Position numbers and translations under genes: made by a program. A DNA stretch of 64,000 bases from Escherichia phage AV124: sequence record OR352954; one strand, 5' to 3'. Shown here in pieces: positions 3,262 through 25,873 of the stretch (its first letter is position 1; every line of letters begins with the position of its first letter). Under the pieces are notes generated by a model. It was given only the letters and a program-made list of their open reading frames with translations. It was not told the DNA's origin and did no database searches.

Positions 3262-4332
3262 ATGGAAAAGTTTGAAGTGATGCGATGCTATTCCGGTAGC
3301 CTCGCTTATGGCACAAATCTTCCAACTAGTGATGTGGATATTCGGGGTCTGTTCTGCGCCCCACCTAAATTCATCCGCACGCCGTTCTTTAACATCAAAG
3401 AGCAAACCTTGGAAGATGAAGAGGATGGGAAGATTTATGAGTTGACAAACTTCATGAGATTGTTTTCAGAGATGAACCCCAACATCATTGAACTGATGTT
3501 TGTCGATGACAAAGACATTTTACAAACCTCTGAAGTTTATGAATATCTTCGCACAATGGCCCCGGCACTGCTGACCAGTAAGGTAGCGTTCTCCTTCTCT
3601 GGGTATGCGATGGCACAGCTTAAACGTATTCGCGGTCATGATAAGTGGATCAGCAATCCGCAGCCTGAAGAAAAGCCTACGCAAAAAGAGTTCTTCCGAT
3701 TAGTTCACAACTATAGTGAGAACGAATTCCTTGCCGGGGCAATTAAGCACGATCGCTTCATGGAAGCAATGAACAATCTCAACGATATGTGTATCCTTGT
3801 ACCTTATGGGAACGATATCTATGGGGTGATGGAAAACTTCAGTAGCTCAGGGATGTTCAATGCTAACGGTTCAATTCGCCATGTTGACTATCAGCAACTT
3901 TCTGACTCTGACAAGCGGAGAAAACCTGTCTTTATTGTCAAATATTTGGCAGAGGAACACAAACAGGCCAAAGAGAAGCATCGTAACTATTGGACATGGA
4001 AACAGAACCGAAATGAAGTTCGTCACCAGCTCGAAGTTGATTTTGGTTATGACACGAAACATGCGATGCACCTTGTGCGCCTGATGCGTATGGCAGAAGA
4101 GATTCTTTCTGATGGGAAGGTCCTAGTGAAGCGTCCTGATGCTCAGGAACTTCTCGACATCCGGGCAGGTAAGTGGACTCTTGACGAACTGCTCTCTTGG
4201 GCTGATGAGAAGGACCGTTATATTCGTGAGGATCTGTACAAAAAGACACAGCTTCCTAAAATGGCGGATCTTGACCTGTTTGCTAGGGTTCTCATGACGG
4301 CTCAGGATATGTGTTGGAGTAAACTGGTATGA
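3262..4332 (+). CDS. Pol-beta superfamily nucleotidyltransferase
   Basis: N-terminal GS-x9-DVD motif (YSGSLAYGTNLPTSDVDIRG) typical of Pol-beta-fold nucleotidyltransferases; SD GGAGAG upstream. Confidence 0.55.
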   Translation: MEKFEVMRCYSGSLAYGTNLPTSDVDIRGLFCAPPKFIRTPFFNIKEQTLEDEEDGKIYELTNFMRLFSEMNPNIIELMFVDDKDILQTSEVYEYLRTMAPALLTSKVAFSFSGYAMAQLKRIRGHDKWISNPQPEEKPTQKEFFRLVHNYSENEFLAGAIKHDRFMEAMNNLNDMCILVPYGNDIYGVMENFSSSGMFNANGSIRHVDYQQLSDSDKRRKPVFIVKYLAEEHKQAKEKHRNYWTWKQNRNEVRHQLEVDFGYDTKHAMHLVRLMRMAEEILSDGKVLVKRPDAQELLDIRAGKWTLDELLSWADEKDRYIREDLYKKTQLPKMADLDLFARVLMTAQDMCWSKLV

Positions 4333-10022: not shown

Positions 10023-10834
10023 CATTATACGCCAAATCTCCTGAAGCGGGAGGATACAATCACCACCCCTGCGTGAAAGGTTGCACATCCCATTAACACA
10101 CATAATATGAAGGGTCTCCCCGATATGTCGATAAAACACCATTTCATAAACACATTGCCGTAACGTGTCGATGCCATAAACATTACGGTGCGAAGCACTT
10201 TGCCAAAGGCAAAAACCTCCGGTGCTATAAATATATCGCCTTGGGCGATTAGCCAGAGGCTAACCCGTACACGGGTAAATATATCGCGTAAACAGGCCCC
10301 TGTTTTCCCCGTATAACCACCCCTTCCCCCCGTGGGGAAATCAAAACATACCCCCTGCCGAAAATATCACTTGCCGAAAAATATCATGGCTTGGTCCTTG
10401 GGTAAAAAATATTGTATTCGCACCATCTGCGGTGTTAGACGGACAGCTCCGGGCGTCAACTATCTTTACGGATCTTTACAAAATATCATGGGCAAGGTCG
10501 ATCCGGTTCCCGGTTCCTCGGGGCCTCTTCAGGCATGATAGTTACTTGCCGAAACTAATAATAATTGGGTGTGTCAGATAGCAAGCTTATGGTTTGCCAG
10601 CTTAGAGCACGATTTGCTATTGACTTGTTTATATTTATATGAATTACACCATTTAACATAAAACACGTTATACGCACTGACCAACAACGCATAGCAGACT
10701 AATAATGCCCCAATGTTACCAGTGTGACGCATAGGACAGCCGCTTCAGGTCATTACATGGTGTGACTGTTACTGTGGTGATAGTTTCATATGTGATTATT
10801 CATGTTTTAGGGTTGTTTTGTGAATGAGACGACG

Positions 10835-10889
10835 AATGAGAATCATTATTATTTCGATTTCGAATTCAATTTCGAAATGAGAATCATTC
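10835..10889. repeat. two copies of palindrome AATGAGAATCATT flanking TTCGA-rich palindromic core
   Basis: AATGAGAATCATT at 10835-10847 and 10877-10889; related copies at 19711-19723 and 19744-19758. Confidence 0.6.
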
Positions 10890-11179
10890 CGCAAATATAA
10901 ATATTTTGTAAATTTATAAATAAAAGCTTGACGAGGGAAGAGAATCGTGTTTAGCAATACATACTCTTTGAGCATCATTATCATTTGCGACTAATTCCCA
11001 TAAACCCTTGCTACGCAAGGGATTGATAGATATTTTCGATAATAAAAACACTTGACACTTCAGATAAAATCATGCTCAAAAACAAGCCTTTTCTCATAAG
11101 ATACGATCATCATTCTAATGGTTTGTCAACCATTAAACACGAATTAATTTGATTAAACTGCTAATTGTTTACAGGGTTT

Positions 11180-11530
11180 ACTATCATCAGCGACACAATA
11201 ACACAATGCCCTTCGGGTTGTTTTCGCCACGGAAAACAATGTCCAGATTGACCAAAGGGGTTTTGTGAATCCCCTTTATCTGGACACAATAACACTAGGG
11301 CGATCAACGATAGTTGATCGGTGTTATCGTGGCGATGTGATAAAGTTTCATTGCTAATCATTACAGATGTAATGATAATATACTGTGATAATTTCGTCCT
11401 TGATCGTAGCGTCTACGAGCCACGATAACGCGAACGAGAATGCGATTTGTTCGCATTTGAGTTACCCTAGTGTTATTGTGTCGCTCGCTCCGCTCGCGCC
11501 ACTCCCCACGATTCGCGAACGAGAAATTTT
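11180..11530. repeat. nested inverted- and direct-repeat cluster (origin- or operator-like)
   Basis: GGACACAATAACACTAGGG (11283) vs reverse complement at 11464; GATCAAC-GATA-GTTGATC; GTTATCGTGG vs CCACGATAAC; CGAACGAGAA twice; several GC hairpins. Confidence 0.55.
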
Positions 11531-12142
11531 ATTGACAGAAAATGATTTCTATGCTCATAAAAAGCCAGTTCACACAATGAGTTAGATGAGGAAAGTTATC
11601 ATTATAGTGATTTATGCTCATATTCACTTCCAGTGCATAGAAATTCATGATTTATTCAGTTAATAACATGCGTTATTAATTAGGTGGGGTTGTGGGGTGA
11701 AAAGCCAGGACCGACACACAATTAAACGCAATATAAAGCGTTTTGAGCGTGGTTATCGGTTACCCTCATCATGGTATGTCTTGTGTTAGATCTCAATTAT
11801 GCACTTTTTTGCATAGCGGCGGGGCCGTGGTGTGGGTTGTTTATGGTGTGGATCTGCAAAGAGAAAAGCCAGGTAAAAACCTGGCCTTTGTGTGATTGTC
11901 TTATGACTGGCTAGCCATATTGTTTTAGATAGTTTACAGCGGAAATTATTGCTTGTGCTCGGCTGTACTCTTCGCCGTTCACACGATAGCGCCGCGCGCC
12001 TTTATGGCACTGGGTGATCATAACCTGGATTATTCCATCCATAACATAGAATGCTTTACTTACGAATAAAATCATCTGATACTTTGCAACCGTGATCCGT
12101 GGCGTATGTTATCGCGTCATCAATTTTTAACATGTCACAACC

Positions 12143-23460: not shown

Positions 23461-23777
23461 TTGTTGTCGGCCTCGCGCCGCCCCCAGTTAAGTCGTTCAT
23501 AAGATTCACTGTCGCCCATGCCTCCATCACATAAGCGAACAAGTTCGCACTTCCACACACATCTAACACCCGTAAACGGGTTAGCTCATGGCTAATCCAC
23601 TTGTGGATGACTGAAGTGATGAATCACTTCCTCTTGAAACTAACTATACACTAACTAAACCATAGATCAAGATCTTTTTATAAAGATCTATGTTTTATGT
23701 TTTTAAGATCTTATGTGTATTATTTTATATATGTATTCATGTGCAAAATTTGCATGACACGAGACGCAAAATTTGCA
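23461..23777. promoter_or_regulatory. operator-like palindromes in intergenic region
   Basis: 32-bp near-perfect palindrome CATAGATCAAGATCTTTTTATAAAGATCTATG (23661-23692); direct repeat GCAAAATTTGCAT at 23743 and 23766. Confidence 0.4.
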
Positions 23778-24056
23778 TCACAAGACGGTGTACTCATACG
23801 TACTCATCCCTCTGCGTTCTGTAGATAGATACCCTAGTGCCACGAGGTTTTTTATGGATGTACTGATTGACCTTTCAGACACACCCGTAGCTTCACTAAT
23901 CGTTTTATAACTAGCAAAGTATTTCTTCCCTTTTGTCTCTAAGTATCCTGCCTTGTACTTTATGTGGAGCAGGACACGAAGATCTGTGCATGACAGGTTC
24001 TTATCATGCAGCTCTTTTTCGTCACAAGCTACCCACTTCTCACTCTTTTTTGGCAT
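23778..24056 (-). CDS. winged-helix DNA-binding protein (putative transcriptional regulator)
   Basis: ASYKTISEATGVSERSISTSIKNLVALGYL is a typical HTH recognition pattern; start trimmed to ATG after GGAG. Confidence 0.45.
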   Translation of the reverse strand: MPKKSEKWVACDEKELHDKNLSCTDLRVLLHIKYKAGYLETKGKKYFASYKTISEATGVSERSISTSIKNLVALGYLSTERRGMSTYEYTVL

Positions 24057-24450
24057 CCAAGTATTTCTCCAAATGAGTGAGTACAACCCCTTGGGCATAC
24101 TCTTGAGATGCATCATTGTGGTGAAGAACAGCCAGATCACATCCAAGTTTGTGCAAACTCCTCTCGAATGGAGACAAGTGTGTCATCATAACTTCGACCA
24201 GACTAAGCTCTTCTTCTGTGATGTGGAGGGGATCATCCGTGAAATCCCTGGAGATGAGAATCTCTCTCTCACCTCCTTCTCCGTGACCATAGACCTCGAC
24301 AATCCTCCTGTTACAGAAAATTTCGTACTGATAGCCGTTCCAATCTTGACCGTCTTGGGCTTCAAAGTTCACAATGAGGCAACAACCAAGCCCCAACAAG
24401 AGTACCTGGAAATCCAAATTGTGAACAATTTTTTTATTTAAAGTGTTCAT
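24040..24450 (-). CDS. hypothetical acidic protein
   Basis: ORF in minus-strand array. Confidence 0.4.
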   Translation of the reverse strand: MNTLNKKIVHNLDFQVLLLGLGCCLIVNFEAQDGQDWNGYQYEIFCNRRIVEVYGHGEGGEREILISRDFTDDPLHITEEELSLVEVMMTHLSPFERSLHKLGCDLAVLHHNDASQEYAQGVVLTHLEKYLDAKKE

Positions 24451-25873
24451 CTAAGTCCACAGCTTTTCCAAATGGTGGAATCCAACCCTTGCGCCCACCG
24501 CAGATAACCCAGAGAGTGTTGTACTTACGCCCCCAGCTTGAGCCACGATGTCTCAGGTCCTCTATGTAACCATCTGTGAAGATTATAACCTCTTTTGCCT
24601 TAGGAATAAACTCATCGATGTACTCAAAAGCACATGCAGCAGTTGTCCCACCAGTCGATGTAACTCTGTAATCCAGAATTTCCTTTATGTTATCCTGTGT
24701 GTACACGTTGACGTTGCCAACTTGGGTTGACCAACAGAACAATGTGATACGGAAACATTGGTACAGGGTGCTCAAAGCGATTATCTCATTGAAGATACGT
24801 GTCATTGTTTGACGAGAGATAGAACCTGAAACGTCAAAACCGATTACAATATCAACAGTCTCTGTTCTTTTTCTGCCAGGCATAACCATGAACTGTTTCT
24901 TAGTTAGAGCGCCGTGATCACGAAGGACTTTTGTCATTCCTCCTGATCGACGACCTAAGACCCGATAAGTACGGTCTGATTTAACACGAGAAATCATTCG
25001 CTGCTTAATGATTTGCAGGTAATTAATCTTCGGTTTACCTTTTTGTGCGATTAATTCTCTGGCTTCTTTTGGCCCTTCACCACCTGCGGCTTTCATAGCA
25101 GCGTCAATCATGTCCTCAGACCAAGACATATCCTCATCTTCCTGATCAGCAGACTTCTGTGGGTGTGGGTCCGTATACCCCAGGATGTCAAGGTCTTTAT
25201 CATAATCCCCTATGTGCGCTCCCAGCGGCTTACCTTCACCGTCACCAATCTCTTCCGGTAGTAGAGCATAAATCTCTTCAGCCGTTTTTCCCTCATATTG
25301 GTAATCGCAATAACAGTAAGCAAGGAAACCAAATTCTTTTGACTTATCAAACACTTGTCGATGAGTGAACCATTTCAAACTCTCGGCTTTCTGGCCCAAC
25401 TCCTTGACTAGGTCAGTATTGATATAGTGATCAGCGGCGATGTTGAAACGTTTGCGATCAAATGTTTTCCCACGAGACATGTGGTCGTTGGTGACATGGC
25501 GGACCTCATGCATCATGATGAATACAATTTCTTTCATGGTCTTTTGACGATAAAATACATTGATGTACTCTTTGTAATCATCTTTTTGCTGTTGTGTCAT
25601 CATCGGATGCTTGTCAATACGAGCAAAGACTTTTTTCTTGCGATCAGCAGGCATACCCATAATGAACTCTGGGTTAAAGTATAGATTGCGATGATCAGTT
25701 GCTGCGGTTGGAAGCCATGCACAGTCAACTATCAGCGGCATACCGCTTAATAATGTCCCATAGAATGGTCGATTAGTAAGTAAAGCGATGCGGGCAGACT
25801 GAACTCTCTTCAGTGCTTCATCAGCCAGTTCCATAATGCTTTCTTTTTCATCAGTATACATTCTTATCTCCAA
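24434..25873 (-). CDS. vWA domain protein with N-terminal HExxH metallopeptidase-like domain
   Basis: HExxH motif (MMHEVRH) in N-terminal half; MIDAS-like DVSGSIS in C-terminal half. Confidence 0.6.
   Translation of the reverse strand: MEIRMYTDEKESIMELADEALKRVQSARIALLTNRPFYGTLLSGMPLIVDCAWLPTAATDHRNLYFNPEFIMGMPADRKKKVFARIDKHPMMTQQQKDDYKEYINVFYRQKTMKEIVFIMMHEVRHVTNDHMSRGKTFDRKRFNIAADHYINTDLVKELGQKAESLKWFTHRQVFDKSKEFGFLAYCYCDYQYEGKTAEEIYALLPEEIGDGEGKPLGAHIGDYDKDLDILGYTDPHPQKSADQEDEDMSWSEDMIDAAMKAAGGEGPKEARELIAQKGKPKINYLQIIKQRMISRVKSDRTYRVLGRRSGGMTKVLRDHGALTKKQFMVMPGRKRTETVDIVIGFDVSGSISRQTMTRIFNEIIALSTLYQCFRITLFCWSTQVGNVNVYTQDNIKEILDYRVTSTGGTTAACAFEYIDEFIPKAKEVIIFTDGYIEDLRHRGSSWGRKYNTLWVICGGRKGWIPPFGKAVDLDEHFK

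Follow-up and report, generated by a model that had tools for sequence, protein, structure and literature searches.

Genomic context of the repeat cluster

The window analyzed here is a stretch of 64,000 nucleotides from Escherichia phage AV124 (OR352954), numbered 5′ to 3′ on one strand. A direct terminal repeat (DTR) of 514 bp, present once in the window, was mapped by homology to 10438-10951; it is the context of the element described below and not a part of it. The 514-bp DTR of phage KPP-1 was derived from doubled read coverage and PhageTerm (PMC9862379). The DTR is also annotated in phage DP, and over its whole length it aligns with the window at 94-95% identity. By PhageTerm these phages are classed as T7-type DTR packagers (PMC9862379; PMC7471380), and the homology mapping indicates a T7-type genome end in the window, with a short exact direct terminal repeat and fixed ends. 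The element occupies the stretch 230-580 bp into the unique DNA adjoining the DTR. A fixed site beside the DTR amid unconserved genes suits a cis-acting DNA site at least as well as an RNA gene.

The tract following the DTR is non-coding: its open reading frames are short and not conserved, and indels in it are non-triplet. A + strand ORF of 47 aa (11771-11914) shares a short motif with phage Gotham; it was rejected because it would cross a terminator and because neither BIS47 nor PVP-SE1 has a matching ORF. This terminator, a hairpin at 11868-11885 that is T-rich on both strands, was detected on the + strand by a terminator scan and read by eye on the - strand (GCCAGGTTTTTACCTGGC followed by TTTTCTCTTT). 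It closes the tract against the convergent - strand genes, and PVP-SE1, Mydo and Gotham have an annotated terminator at the corresponding position. Genes converge on the tract and cumulative GC skew reaches its maximum here, with the minimum and the point of divergence near 26 kb. GC skew was rejected as an indicator of an origin since it only follows the direction of transcription; the rV5 genome paper likewise notes that skew tracks transcription in these phages. The neighbouring genes all belong to PHROGs of unknown function. Flanking proteins were dropped as synteny anchors, as the genes are unrelated across BIS47, Gotham and the window: the 264-nt genes beside the tract in BIS47 and Gotham are unrelated to each other, and neither resembles the neighbour in the window. 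Elsewhere the window encodes a DnaB-like/T7-gp4-like primase-helicase, a family A polymerase and an HTH_36 protein.

Promoter-like sequences around the element

Promoter-like sequences, assigned by consensus matching, lie on both sides of the repeat cluster, all on the + strand. A candidate sigma-70-like promoter directed toward the element is located at 11052-11081, with TTGACA at 11052-11057, an 18-nt spacer carrying TGc, and TCAAAA. The TTGACA and its flanks are invariant in seven aligned phages; the site is not listed by the promoter scan. The 14-mer TTTGTCAACCATTA (11122-11135) forms a run of invariant alignment columns 48-67 nt ahead of the stem arm; it might serve as a -35 region or as a protein-binding site. 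At 11179-11184 a -10-like TACTAT is followed by CATC and then by the outer copy of the stem arm, from AGC at 11189, and may be part of a promoter. Comparable sequences occupy this position in the relatives: TTACYATCA directly precedes the arm in Mydovirus-type phages, the uncultured contig L112 has TGTTACTAT, an extended -10, and the corresponding sequences are TGATTATAAT in Gotham and TTGCAT-N18-TACAAT in FFH2. In most phages the -35 region immediately before it is poor. A small hairpin with a T-run just 5′ of the arm, seen in rV5 and in the window, could halt read-through transcription. Downstream, a further candidate promoter that belongs to the context of the element lies at 11532-11560 (TTGACA, a 17-nt spacer ending in TGc, TCATAA). 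Its TTGACA is invariant and TATGCTCA is conserved (22/24 sequences), and no conserved ORF follows it.

Repeat content of 11180-11530

A dense cluster of nested repeats within 11180-11530 had been reported in a preliminary description of this DNA, and every repeat in its list was found where it had been placed. The main inverted repeat consists of GACACAATAACACTAGGG (11283-11300) and its exact reverse complement (11465-11482), 18 nt with 100% complementarity separated by a spacer of 164 nt. A third copy of the stem arm, AGCGACACAATAACAC at 11189-11204, is a perfect 16-nt complement of 11470-11485. The palindrome CGATCAAC-GATA-GTTGATCG occupies 11301-11320, GTTATCGTGGC (11323-11333) pairs with GCCACGATAAC (11419-11429), CGCGAACGAGAA is present twice (11429 and 11514), and a GC hairpin, AAAGGGG...CCCCTTT, lies at 11254-11277. 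Five exact copies of the 11-mer CACRATAACRC are present, all inside 11194-11480, with none in the rest of the 64 kb. The direct repeat CCACGATwaCGCGAACGA has its first copy at 11420-11437 and its second at 11505-11522. The extra motif copies and the flanking direct repeats look iteron-like, a point against the RNA-gene reading given below.

The density of repeats is well above chance. The longest spaced perfect inverted repeat has 18 nt, against a maximum of 15 nt in 2000 dinucleotide shuffles of 11180-11530. It is also the longest in the 64-kb window, where only one of 364 tiles, the one studied here, holds an inverted repeat of at least 13 nt. The folding z-scores were -9.4 (+ strand) and -7.8 (- strand) with RNA parameters, and -8.4 and -7.0, respectively, with DNA parameters, which predicted the same fold. 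The preliminary description had located the feature correctly and drawn it slightly too short, as the conserved 3′ part reaches ~11533 and abuts the conserved promoter at 11532-11560.

The repeats are helices of one fold

The repeats form the helices of a single fold, in which P1 encloses P2, P3 and P4, and P5 with a T-run follows on the 3′ side (positions on the + strand). The arms of the 18-bp closing stem P1 are at 11283-11300 and 11465-11482, the latter being the exact complement of the former, and the conserved block of the relatives begins exactly at the 5′ arm. The outer arm copy (11189-11204) is a spare, an alternative 16-bp partner of 11470-11485. It is separated from P1 by an inserted module of ~78 nt (11205-11282) that contains three small hairpins and is flanked by a duplicated 13-nt sequence, GACACAATAACAC. 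The insert is present in the window, Seunavirus GEC_vB_MG and PVP-SE1, and is missing from BIS47, DP, 4MG and EspYZU15; in relatives that lack it the spare arm copy joins P1 directly.

Within P1, the P2 hairpin (11301-11320) has an 8-bp stem and the loop GATA, and occurs in the compensatory variants CGATCAAC/GTTGATCG, CGATCACGC/GCGTGATCG and CGATTAGC/GCTAATCG. Readings by eye of DnaA boxes, IHF sites and Dam sites gave no convincing match, and the GATC of P2 is lost in several relatives. The 5′ arm of P3 (11321-11333, 13 nt) is invariant in 24 sequences, and its 3′ arm (11419-11431) overlaps copy 1 of the direct repeat. P3 holds an invariant U-G pair, which on the - strand would correspond to A.C. 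The AT-rich tip of P3 (11334-11418) varies in length, with indels and low identity, and carries local hairpins at 11357-11376 and 11407-11419. Its GC content of 0.36-0.39 is that of an AT-rich unwinding region such as iteron origins have. The P4 hairpin (11433-11463) pairs 11438-11445 with 11451-11458 and AAC (11433-11435) with GTT (11461-11463); three versions with compensatory changes were seen, AATGCGA/TCGCATT, AATGATAA/TTATCATT and AACGATA/TATCGTT. Among the homologues, the two P1 arms are 80 to 225 nt apart.

The 3′ tail (11483-11533) is GC-rich and nearly invariant. It comprises GC..TCGCGCCAC, which is universal in all clades, P5, copy 2 of the direct repeat and a T-run at 11527-11533. 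In P5, 11491-11498 pairs with 11514-11521 to form an 8-bp stem with one C.A mismatch and a loop of 15 nt, which is 16 nt in most relatives. The T-run is interrupted in the window (TTTTATT), and the terminator scan lists no terminator at P5. A clear terminator after the element is missing in Vequintavirus and in L112.

Conservation and covariation of the element

Conservation in related phages had been put forward as a check on the cluster, and the element proved to be kept: a non-coding element of ~250 bases with a defined multi-helix fold is conserved across at least four genera of the rV5-like (Vequintavirinae) phages. Homologues were found in ~180 independent phage records as well as in metagenomes. 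Each genome carries one copy of the element, at a site that is syntenic from clade to clade, and the element is more conserved than the genes around it; within Vequintavirus it is ~100% identical while its flanks vary. In both large clades the P1 5′ arm marks the precise start of the conserved block. The tail flank GC-N(7-11)-TCGCGCCAY is common to Seunavirus/Mydovirus, Vequintavirus and Avunavirus phages and contig L112.

The helices were assessed in 24 distinct Seunavirus/Mydovirus sequences. Over 49 pairs, 97.8% of positions were paired, and eight pairs showed double-sided changes (44 cells); none of 500 shuffles was as good and slid controls gave ~0. For P1 in four clades (20 distinct arm pairs), 11 pairs had double-sided changes, again with 0/500 shuffles reaching this. 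P1 is 18 bp long in the four clades (17-18 bp in L112) and its sequence differs in each, as in ..ACACTAGGG, ..ACGCAGTAG, ..ACGCTGAGG and ..TATAAAAGCAG. RNAalifold recovered P1-P4 and P5 without an input structure. The compensatory substitutions expected of the helices of a structured non-coding RNA are thus present. In essentially all sequences P1 is perfectly Watson-Crick, with almost no G-U; ordinary RNA stems show this pattern less typically than do inverted repeats at the DNA level or substrates of RNase III.

The fold is also strand-specific. In all 31 homologues, the independent Vequintavirus clade included, the minimum free energy of the + strand was below that of the - strand, by a mean of 10 kcal/mol. 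One-sided changes nearly all gave G-U on the + strand, with only one A.C. Strand specificity of this kind is expected of a structured RNA, and a + strand of DNA fits it equally well.

The pattern of changes bears on the proposal that the cluster is a double-stranded operator array, in which a phage regulator bound to the CACRATAAC motifs and palindromes would control the promoter at 11532. Five to six motif copies in both orientations are packed within 320 bp and absent elsewhere in the 64 kb, and the -35 of the conserved promoter borders on the invariant sequence of the P3 arms and tail. The arms nevertheless covary outside the motif (in the distal 5 bp of P1, the inner P2 pairs and P4), and pairing is kept while stem lengths and loops vary. 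Strand asymmetry would be meaningless for duplex sites, the site spacings of 91, 38, 98, 51 and 35 nt have no helical phasing, and in Vequintavirus the motif is completely different while the architecture is the same. We therefore regard an operator array as improbable.

The preliminary description had read the cluster as an origin- or operator-like array of initiator or regulator binding sites. It was right that a real conserved non-coding element is present and not random AT-rich repeats, but the symmetric parts do not act as independent double-stranded sites would: they covary as single-strand helices, the + strand is the more stable in 31/31 cases and phased direct repeats are lacking. Protein binding is still plausible, because the 18-20-nt direct repeat and the spare stem arm exceed the needs of pairing.

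A ~200-bp unit bounded by perfect 18-bp terminal inverted repeats, with an adjoining ~78-nt insert between 13-nt direct repeats, also resembles a miniature inverted-repeat transposable element. The element lacks the dispersed copies and the target-site duplication of such a transposon, with one copy in 64 kb and flanks (AGC/GCT) that extend the inverted repeat; conservation runs past the right arm, and the element is missing from the plasmids searched and, among the matches listed, from bacterial contigs. A transposable element, or a chance or assembly artefact, is already contradicted by the syntenic single copies, the conservation and the presence in ~180 independent phage records and in metagenomes, and was rejected as very improbable.

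Database and literature searches

A search of the whole window against Rfam release 15 at gathering thresholds gave no matches. When 10400-12000 was searched at E<5, only weak, unrelated snoRNA and sRNA matches were obtained, none of them over 11180-11530. Nothing was found in a tRNA/tmRNA search, and blastn (E<0.01) against a plasmid collection gave no match. In bacterial contigs the tail pattern occurs at no fewer than 120 loci, which serve as a negative control; among the matches listed none had the P1 partner arm, the best having at least 5 mismatches in 18. A metagenome scan with a 17-mer returned 65 loci, mostly chance matches, with ~7 true homologues. Two IMG/VR contigs (L101 and L105) were rejected, as they carry the tail pattern in apparent coding sequence and have no stem. 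A likeness to the AAV Rep-binding element (GCTC repeats, CCACTCC) was dropped because Vequintavirus has no GCTC repeats. Literature searches found neither a paper on the element nor a transcriptome of any Vequintavirinae phage.

A candidate gene for a structured RNA

The best reading, which we put forward tentatively at a little under an even chance, is that the cluster is the gene of an undescribed structured non-coding RNA. The RNA would be ~250 nt in most relatives and ~340 nt in the window because of the insert. Host RNA polymerase would transcribe the + strand within the non-coding tract that follows the DTR. Its 5′ end would coincide with the P1 5′ arm or precede it by a few bases, and would arise either from a weak or extended -10 immediately 5′ or by processing of read-through from the strong upstream TTGACA promoters; its 3′ end would be at P5 and the T-run. 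This reading is favoured by conserved TTGACA promoters upstream in the same sense and, in several clades, by -10-like elements 4-8 nt before the arm, both consensus matches. The conserved block begins at the P1 5′ arm, as expected for a transcript start. P5 with a T-run, likewise a consensus match to a terminator, is present in 24/24 Seunavirus/Mydovirus sequences, and a hairpin with a T-run in Av-05 and TH18.

In such an RNA the perfect 18-21-bp P1 duplex would be a likely site of RNase III-type processing or a stabilising stem. The invariant blocks would be contacts for a phage or host protein; they comprise both P3 arms, the base of P1 (GACAYAATA/TATTRTGTC) and, in the tail, GC..TCGCGCCAY. 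The spare arm and the repeated CCACGATwaCGCGAACGA appear to offer P1, P3 and P5 alternative partners, and the RNA may therefore switch between two conformations. It may serve as an early-expressed protein-binding RNA or as a cis-acting RNA at the genome end.

The strand asymmetry and the flanking repeats also fit, with a lesser probability, an origin or priming site that acts through single-stranded + strand DNA, which we consider possible but rather doubtful. An R-loop formed from the upstream promoters, or a replication fork, would expose the + strand, which would fold into the same helices; the conserved tail would be shown to the T7-gp4-like primase-helicase, the AT-rich centre would unwind and the repeated motifs would bind an initiator. 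DNA parameters predict the same fold. The + strand is the non-template strand that rightward transcription displaces and also, for a rightward fork, the template of the lagging strand, and the bias towards it agrees with this role. The AT-rich core is variable between conserved repeats, and the motif copies and 18-20-nt direct repeats are surplus to pairing. T7 has promoter-dependent origins, one of them just inside the left terminal repeat. The genes of the window provide a DnaB-like helicase, a family A polymerase and an HTH_36 protein resembling the N-domain of PHROG 8102. This HTH protein, named in the preliminary description at 23778-24056 as a candidate binder, is real (23778-24146, - strand) and matches Pfam HTH_36 and the N-terminal part of the PHROG 8102 'replication initiation protein'.

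Against this, the placement that an origin-like array would imply is not borne out: gene orientation and GC skew mark the locus as a point of convergence and cumulative skew peak, with divergence near 26 kb, and not as the switch in skew and transcription from which divergent forks would start. The phased direct array of iteron origins, at least three direct repeats of 17-22 bp, is absent, as the copies here are of mixed orientation with one 18-nt pair 85 nt apart. A separate iteron-like tandem repeat lies at 23743-23785, right beside the initiator-like HTH gene. The tail of the RNA-like strand is C-rich, which would disfavour a stable R-loop, and nothing similar was found on any plasmid searched.

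The position of the element raises a further alternative, a cis signal for maturation of the DTR or for packaging. Terminase would be guided, or copying of the repeat primed, by the folded DNA strand or by a protein bound next to the repeat, much as has been proposed for the hairpin near the T7 concatemer junction. In Mydovirus-type phages and Vequintavirus Gotham 200-330 bp (200, 241, 312 and 332 bp) separate the element from the right DTR edge, and its orientation is the same, despite unrelated neighbour genes; position and orientation are thus kept in both clades with a mappable repeat. The ~100% identity in Vequintavirus between variable flanks, the perfectly Watson-Crick arms and the T7-type DTR class assigned by PhageTerm (PMC9862379; PMC7471380) agree with such a signal. 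The distance to the cut site is variable, however, and hairpin-primed copying from this side would, from its geometry, need a - strand fold when the + strand is favoured. Nothing like the element was seen at the other DTR edge in the region read, and no terminase is known to recognise a multi-helix junction. A packaging signal is thus an unlikely explanation.

Comparison with known systems

As in the T7-type left end, a short DTR is followed by a promoter-rich non-coding tract with repeats and an inverted repeat a few hundred bp in, and the phages share T7-type packaging (by PhageTerm) and a replisome with a family A polymerase and a gp4-like helicase. The sequences are unrelated, and the element here is a conserved five-helix fold backed by covariation. 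T7 has its own RNA polymerase and short AT-rich origins, and the hairpin proposed near its concatemer junction, a simple quasi-palindrome, is located on the opposite side of the repeat.

The structured primer and origin RNAs, ColE1 RNA II and those of the T4 oriF/oriG R-loop origins, likewise have a promoter followed by a folded conserved RNA or displaced strand that may act in cis on DNA; in contrast to them, no RNase H and no hybrid-forming G-rich segment was seen here, the tail is C-rich and origin activity is putative. Repeated motifs flank an AT-rich core in lambda ori as they do here, and a protein with the N-terminal wHTH of O-like initiators is encoded. In lambda the iterons are direct repeats in phase with one another, located within the initiator gene or next to it, whereas the copies in the element are mostly inverted, unphased and mutually pairing, and the HTH gene is 12 kb away. 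Plasmid ssoA, the filamentous-phage minus-strand origin and G4 oric share with the element an extensive intrastrand pairing that is specific to one orientation, with a few invariant blocks on an otherwise variable fold. The replicons they belong to, however, must pass through a single-stranded stage, and no such stage is known for these double-stranded DNA myoviruses.

The length and the pairing of the ends in a long stem resemble phi29 pRNA and bacterial 6S RNA (~170-250 nt), and the gene of the pRNA, too, is found at the far left of a linear phage genome. Unlike these RNAs, the element has no Rfam match even at E<5 and shows no central-bubble rod and no complementary loop pair; its function is putative. 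In a further, improbable reading the element represents a novel kind of phage RNA, or of folded DNA strand, with a cis role at the genome ends of terminal-repeat myoviruses. It might serve as an RNA cofactor or guide for duplication of the terminal repeat or packaging, functionally like phi29 pRNA, or as a structured primer that sets an end-proximal origin, with the spare arm and repeated tail as a state switch.

Implications for Vequintavirinae phages

Vequintavirinae phages, among them rV5, PVP-SE1 and Klebsiella Mydovirus phages, are widely used candidates for therapy and biocontrol, and in the rV5 genome paper this zone is drawn merely as a grey 'non-coding' box. A discrete, covariation-backed element tied to the physical genome end is a precise target for mutagenesis by deletion or compensatory change, transcript mapping and protein pull-down. 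Its signature, GACAYAATA...TATTRTGTC-GC-N(7-11)-TCGCGCCAY together with the 18-bp stem, finds the element and the neighbourhood of the DTR in arbitrarily opened assemblies. Should the element prove to be an RNA, Rfam would gain a new phage RNA family; should it prove to be a DNA signal, the subfamily would have its first described cis-acting element for a genome end or an origin.

Repeats at 11180-11530 form the helices of a single fold

The cluster of nested repeats noted at 11180-11530 in the preliminary description is confirmed, and by self-comparison and shuffling its repeat density is far above random expectation. A perfect 18-nt inverted repeat has its arms, separated by 164 nt, at 11283-11300 and 11465-11482, and its core is found again at 11189-11204, as had been described. 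The palindrome CGATCAAC-GATA-GTTGATCG at 11301-11320, the complementary pair GTTATCGTGGC (11323-11333) and GCCACGATAAC (11419-11429), the two copies of CGCGAACGAGAA (11429 and 11514) and the GC hairpin AAAGGGG...CCCCTTT (11254-11277) were likewise all found. Five exact copies of CACRATAACRC are present inside 11194-11480 and none elsewhere in the 64 kb. In 2000 dinucleotide shuffles of the region the longest spaced perfect inverted repeat was at most 15 nt, against the 18 nt observed, and among 364 window tiles only the one holding the element has such a repeat of 13 nt or more. Folding z-scores were -9.4 (+ strand) and -7.8 (- strand) with RNA parameters, and -8.4 and -7.0, respectively, with DNA parameters.

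Blast revealed a conserved block in 58 Seunavirus and Mydovirus records, whose left edge coincides with the start of the left arm (11283) and whose right edge is at about 11560. When 24 distinct sequences were aligned, the listed repeats proved to be helices of one fold. The closing stem P1 (11283-11300 with 11465-11482; 21 bp where AGC precedes the arm) encloses hairpin P2 (11301-11320), stem P3 (11321-11333 with 11419-11431; arms invariant, tip AT-rich and variable in length) and hairpin P4 (11438-11458, extended by 11433-11435 with 11461-11463). The GC-rich tail 3' of P1 is almost invariant. With the structure specified by us, 97.8% of cells are paired and 8 pairs are changed on both sides (44 cells); these values were reached by none of 500 shuffles and were abolished when the partner was slid by 1-3 columns. 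RNAalifold, run without a supplied structure, recovered P1-P4 and added hairpin P5 (11491-11498 with 11514-11521), with a T-run after it.

Immediately upstream, 11205-11282 is an insert of about 78 nt with three hairpins, flanked by two copies of the 13-nt GACACAATAACAC. Seunavirus GEC_vB_MG and PVP-SE1 also have it and the closest Mydovirus relatives lack it, a distribution that suggests that the module was inserted at the stem arm or arose there by recombination.

The element lies beside the terminal repeat

The window is from a member of the Vequintavirinae whose nearest relatives are Klebsiella Mydovirus phages. The tract 10540-11860 is devoid of credible ORFs and separates + strand genes on the left from - strand genes on the right, the latter ending at a terminator hairpin (11868-11885). 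For phage KPP-1, a 514-bp direct terminal repeat was established from doubled read coverage and PhageTerm (PMC9862379), and the annotation of phage DP gives a repeat of identical extent. This repeat aligns end to end with 10438-10951 at 94-95% identity; therefore the window spans the physical genome ends and the element lies 230-580 bp inside unique DNA, past the right repeat edge. The repeat is present once in the window, as in a circularised or concatemer-type assembly; in the virion, the left end would map to about 10438, with a second repeat copy, ending at 10951, on the right. Vequintavirus Gotham, with an annotated 459-bp terminal repeat (PMC7471380), shows the same order of features: terminal repeat, a non-coding stretch of about 1 kb, a terminator and - strand genes.

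Several further features were seen in this neighbourhood. TTGAC(A/G) is conserved about 18-20 nt before the right repeat edge (window 10928-10951, AAAAGCTTGACGAGGGAAGAGAATCGTGTT up to the edge; Gotham 435-459, CACTTGACAAAGAGGAGAAAAACTTGTC up to the edge) and could either belong to a promoter that cutting divides in two or serve as the cut-site motif of the terminase. The gap between repeat and element in Gotham (460-660) carries about six spaced (G)TTTACA(C) and four TGACA(T/A)AAT copies, recalling the arrays of short repeats on either side of the T7 terminal repeat. The approximately 300 nt at 11560-11867, 3' of a conserved putative promoter at 11532, also appear non-coding and may give a second non-coding transcript; they contain a hairpin TTAATAACATGCGTTATTAA (11660-11680) and GGCGGGGCCGT (11821-11831), a motif also present ahead of the terminator in Gotham (1430-1440). 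Elsewhere in the window, ORFs unrelated to the element encode an RlaP-type protein (3262-4332, + strand; RNA repair pathway, polymerase beta family) and a DUF2201 metallopeptidase/VWA protein (24434-25873, - strand).

Versions of the element in other clades

No similarity between Gotham and the window was detectable by blast. Gotham has an 18-nt perfect inverted repeat, GACATAATATAAAAGCAG, with arms 116 nt apart, 200 bp from the repeat edge; the repeats nested inside it are of another motif, AGGCAACTAT, and its tail GCGACTCCGTCGCGCCAT is similar to the window tail GCTCGCTCCGCTCGCGCCAC. In 120 Vequintavirus records the conserved block likewise begins at the left arm; seven representatives have it in almost identical form but differ in the upstream flank. 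A pattern built from the common tail, TGGCGCGA-N(7-11)-GCGACAYWAT, retrieved two more versions from IMG/VR: Avunavirus Av-05 with its relative TH18 (P1 arms GACACAATAACGCAGTAG) and an uncultured 140-kb contig, L112 (P1 arms GACATAATAACGCTGAG). Conservation in related phages extends from the Seunavirus/Mydovirus block to Vequintavirus, Avunavirus and L112. In the four clades P1 is 18 bp long (17-18 in L112), with arms separated by 80-225 nt, and has 11 pairs with compensatory changes, matched by 0 of 500 shuffles. Common to all four are 5'-GACAYAATA, TATTRTGTC-3' and the tail GC-N(7-11)-TCGCGCCAY.

As a control, bacterial genome contigs gave at least 120 chance matches to the tail pattern, and the partner arm was found in none of the matches listed. 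Plasmids gave no match to the element, no Rfam family matches it, and it was not found in the literature searched. A mobile element is excluded by single copy, synteny and the absence of a target duplication; such an origin, or an artefact, is barely credible.

A weaker stem-closed hairpin cluster, with arms GCTAATAATAAGCCA and TGGCTTATTATTAGC 98 nt apart, is found at 587-732 of the WPEC1 record (Phapecoctavirus-like), some 600 bp in from its start and before - strand genes, and is possibly a distant counterpart in Stephanstirmvirinae. Eighteen records labelled 'Campylobacter phage' (e.g. MG065690.1; some UNVERIFIED) are rV5-like Vequintavirus genomes carrying the element, and their host label looks doubtful. 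Several ENA phage records (e.g. OY757067.1) have 'major head protein', 'terminase large subunit' or 'tail fiber protein' annotated over the non-coding tract, all flagged as partial pseudogenes; the annotation seems offset from the sequence.

Strand preference and the possible role of the element

One-sided substitutions in the helices are nearly all G-U on the + strand, P3 has an invariant U-G, and the reverse case (A.C) occurs in one sequence only. The + strand has the lower minimum free energy in 31 of 31 homologues, an independent Vequintavirus set included; the mean difference is 10 kcal/mol. It follows that the functional strand points away from the terminal repeat, and conserved putative TTGACA promoters at 11052 and 11532 have the same sense.

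Strand bias combined with selection for pairing within the strand usually points to RNA, and stable RNAs typically have the 5' end paired with a distal segment through a long closing stem. The sequences demonstrate the fold, its conservation and its position; transcription, processing, binding by protein and function are inferred. A structured RNA gene is the leading reading, at slightly less than an even chance. The long P1 stem, by analogy with stable RNAs, would fit it, and the predicted upstream promoters point in the correct direction. A -10-like hexamer precedes the arm by 4-8 nt in several clades, as TGTTACYAT (Mydovirus-type phages, L112), TGATTATAAT (Gotham) or TTGCAT-N18-TACAAT (FFH2); from it a transcript would start at the stem, which would explain the sharp left edge of conservation. 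P5 and its T-run follow the element in all Seunavirus/Mydovirus sequences, and a hairpin with T-run does so in Av-05 and TH18; in Vequintavirus no clear terminator is seen 3' of it. Against an RNA gene, the -35 regions directly upstream are poor, and a small hairpin with T-run lies right before the arm in rV5 and the window.

Other features speak for a role at the DNA level. P1 is perfectly Watson-Crick nearly everywhere, the element keeps its place beside the terminal repeat although the adjoining genes are unrelated, and motif copies exceed pairing needs. The spare arm lies at 11189 in the window, inside the element in Av-05 and upstream in L112, and 18-20-nt direct repeats, surplus to pairing, always have one copy 3' of P1. 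The spare copies might also be alternative pairing partners of a conformational switch. The initiator or regulator array first proposed is only partly supported. A duplex operator array, which leaves the covariation outside the motif and the strand bias unexplained, is most improbable. A maturation or packaging signal for the terminal repeat would fit the location, but the distance to the cut site varies (200-332 bp) and the favoured strand does not fit, making it quite unlikely.

A single-stranded-DNA or R-loop origin is somewhat doubtful. The phage encodes a DnaB-like helicase, a family A polymerase and a 92-122-aa HTH_36 protein matching the N-terminal part of PHROG 8102 'replication initiation protein'; therefore an origin-binding protein probably exists, and the EMSA proposed in the preliminary description is sensible. 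However, the site is a convergence point and skew maximum, phased direct iterons are absent from the element, and the HTH gene is 12 kb away and directly adjoined by a pair of tandem 20-nt repeats (23743-23785). The short intergenic tract there (23570-23790), beside the HTH_36 gene (23778-24146, - strand), is a candidate alternative origin, with the tandem repeats GCAAAATTTGCATGACACGA (23743) and GCAAAATTTGCATCACAAGA (23766), tandem ACTAACTAWAC and a 13-nt inverted repeat.

The repeat cluster thus belongs to a multi-helix element of the Vequintavirinae that is conserved, non-coding and strand-specific.
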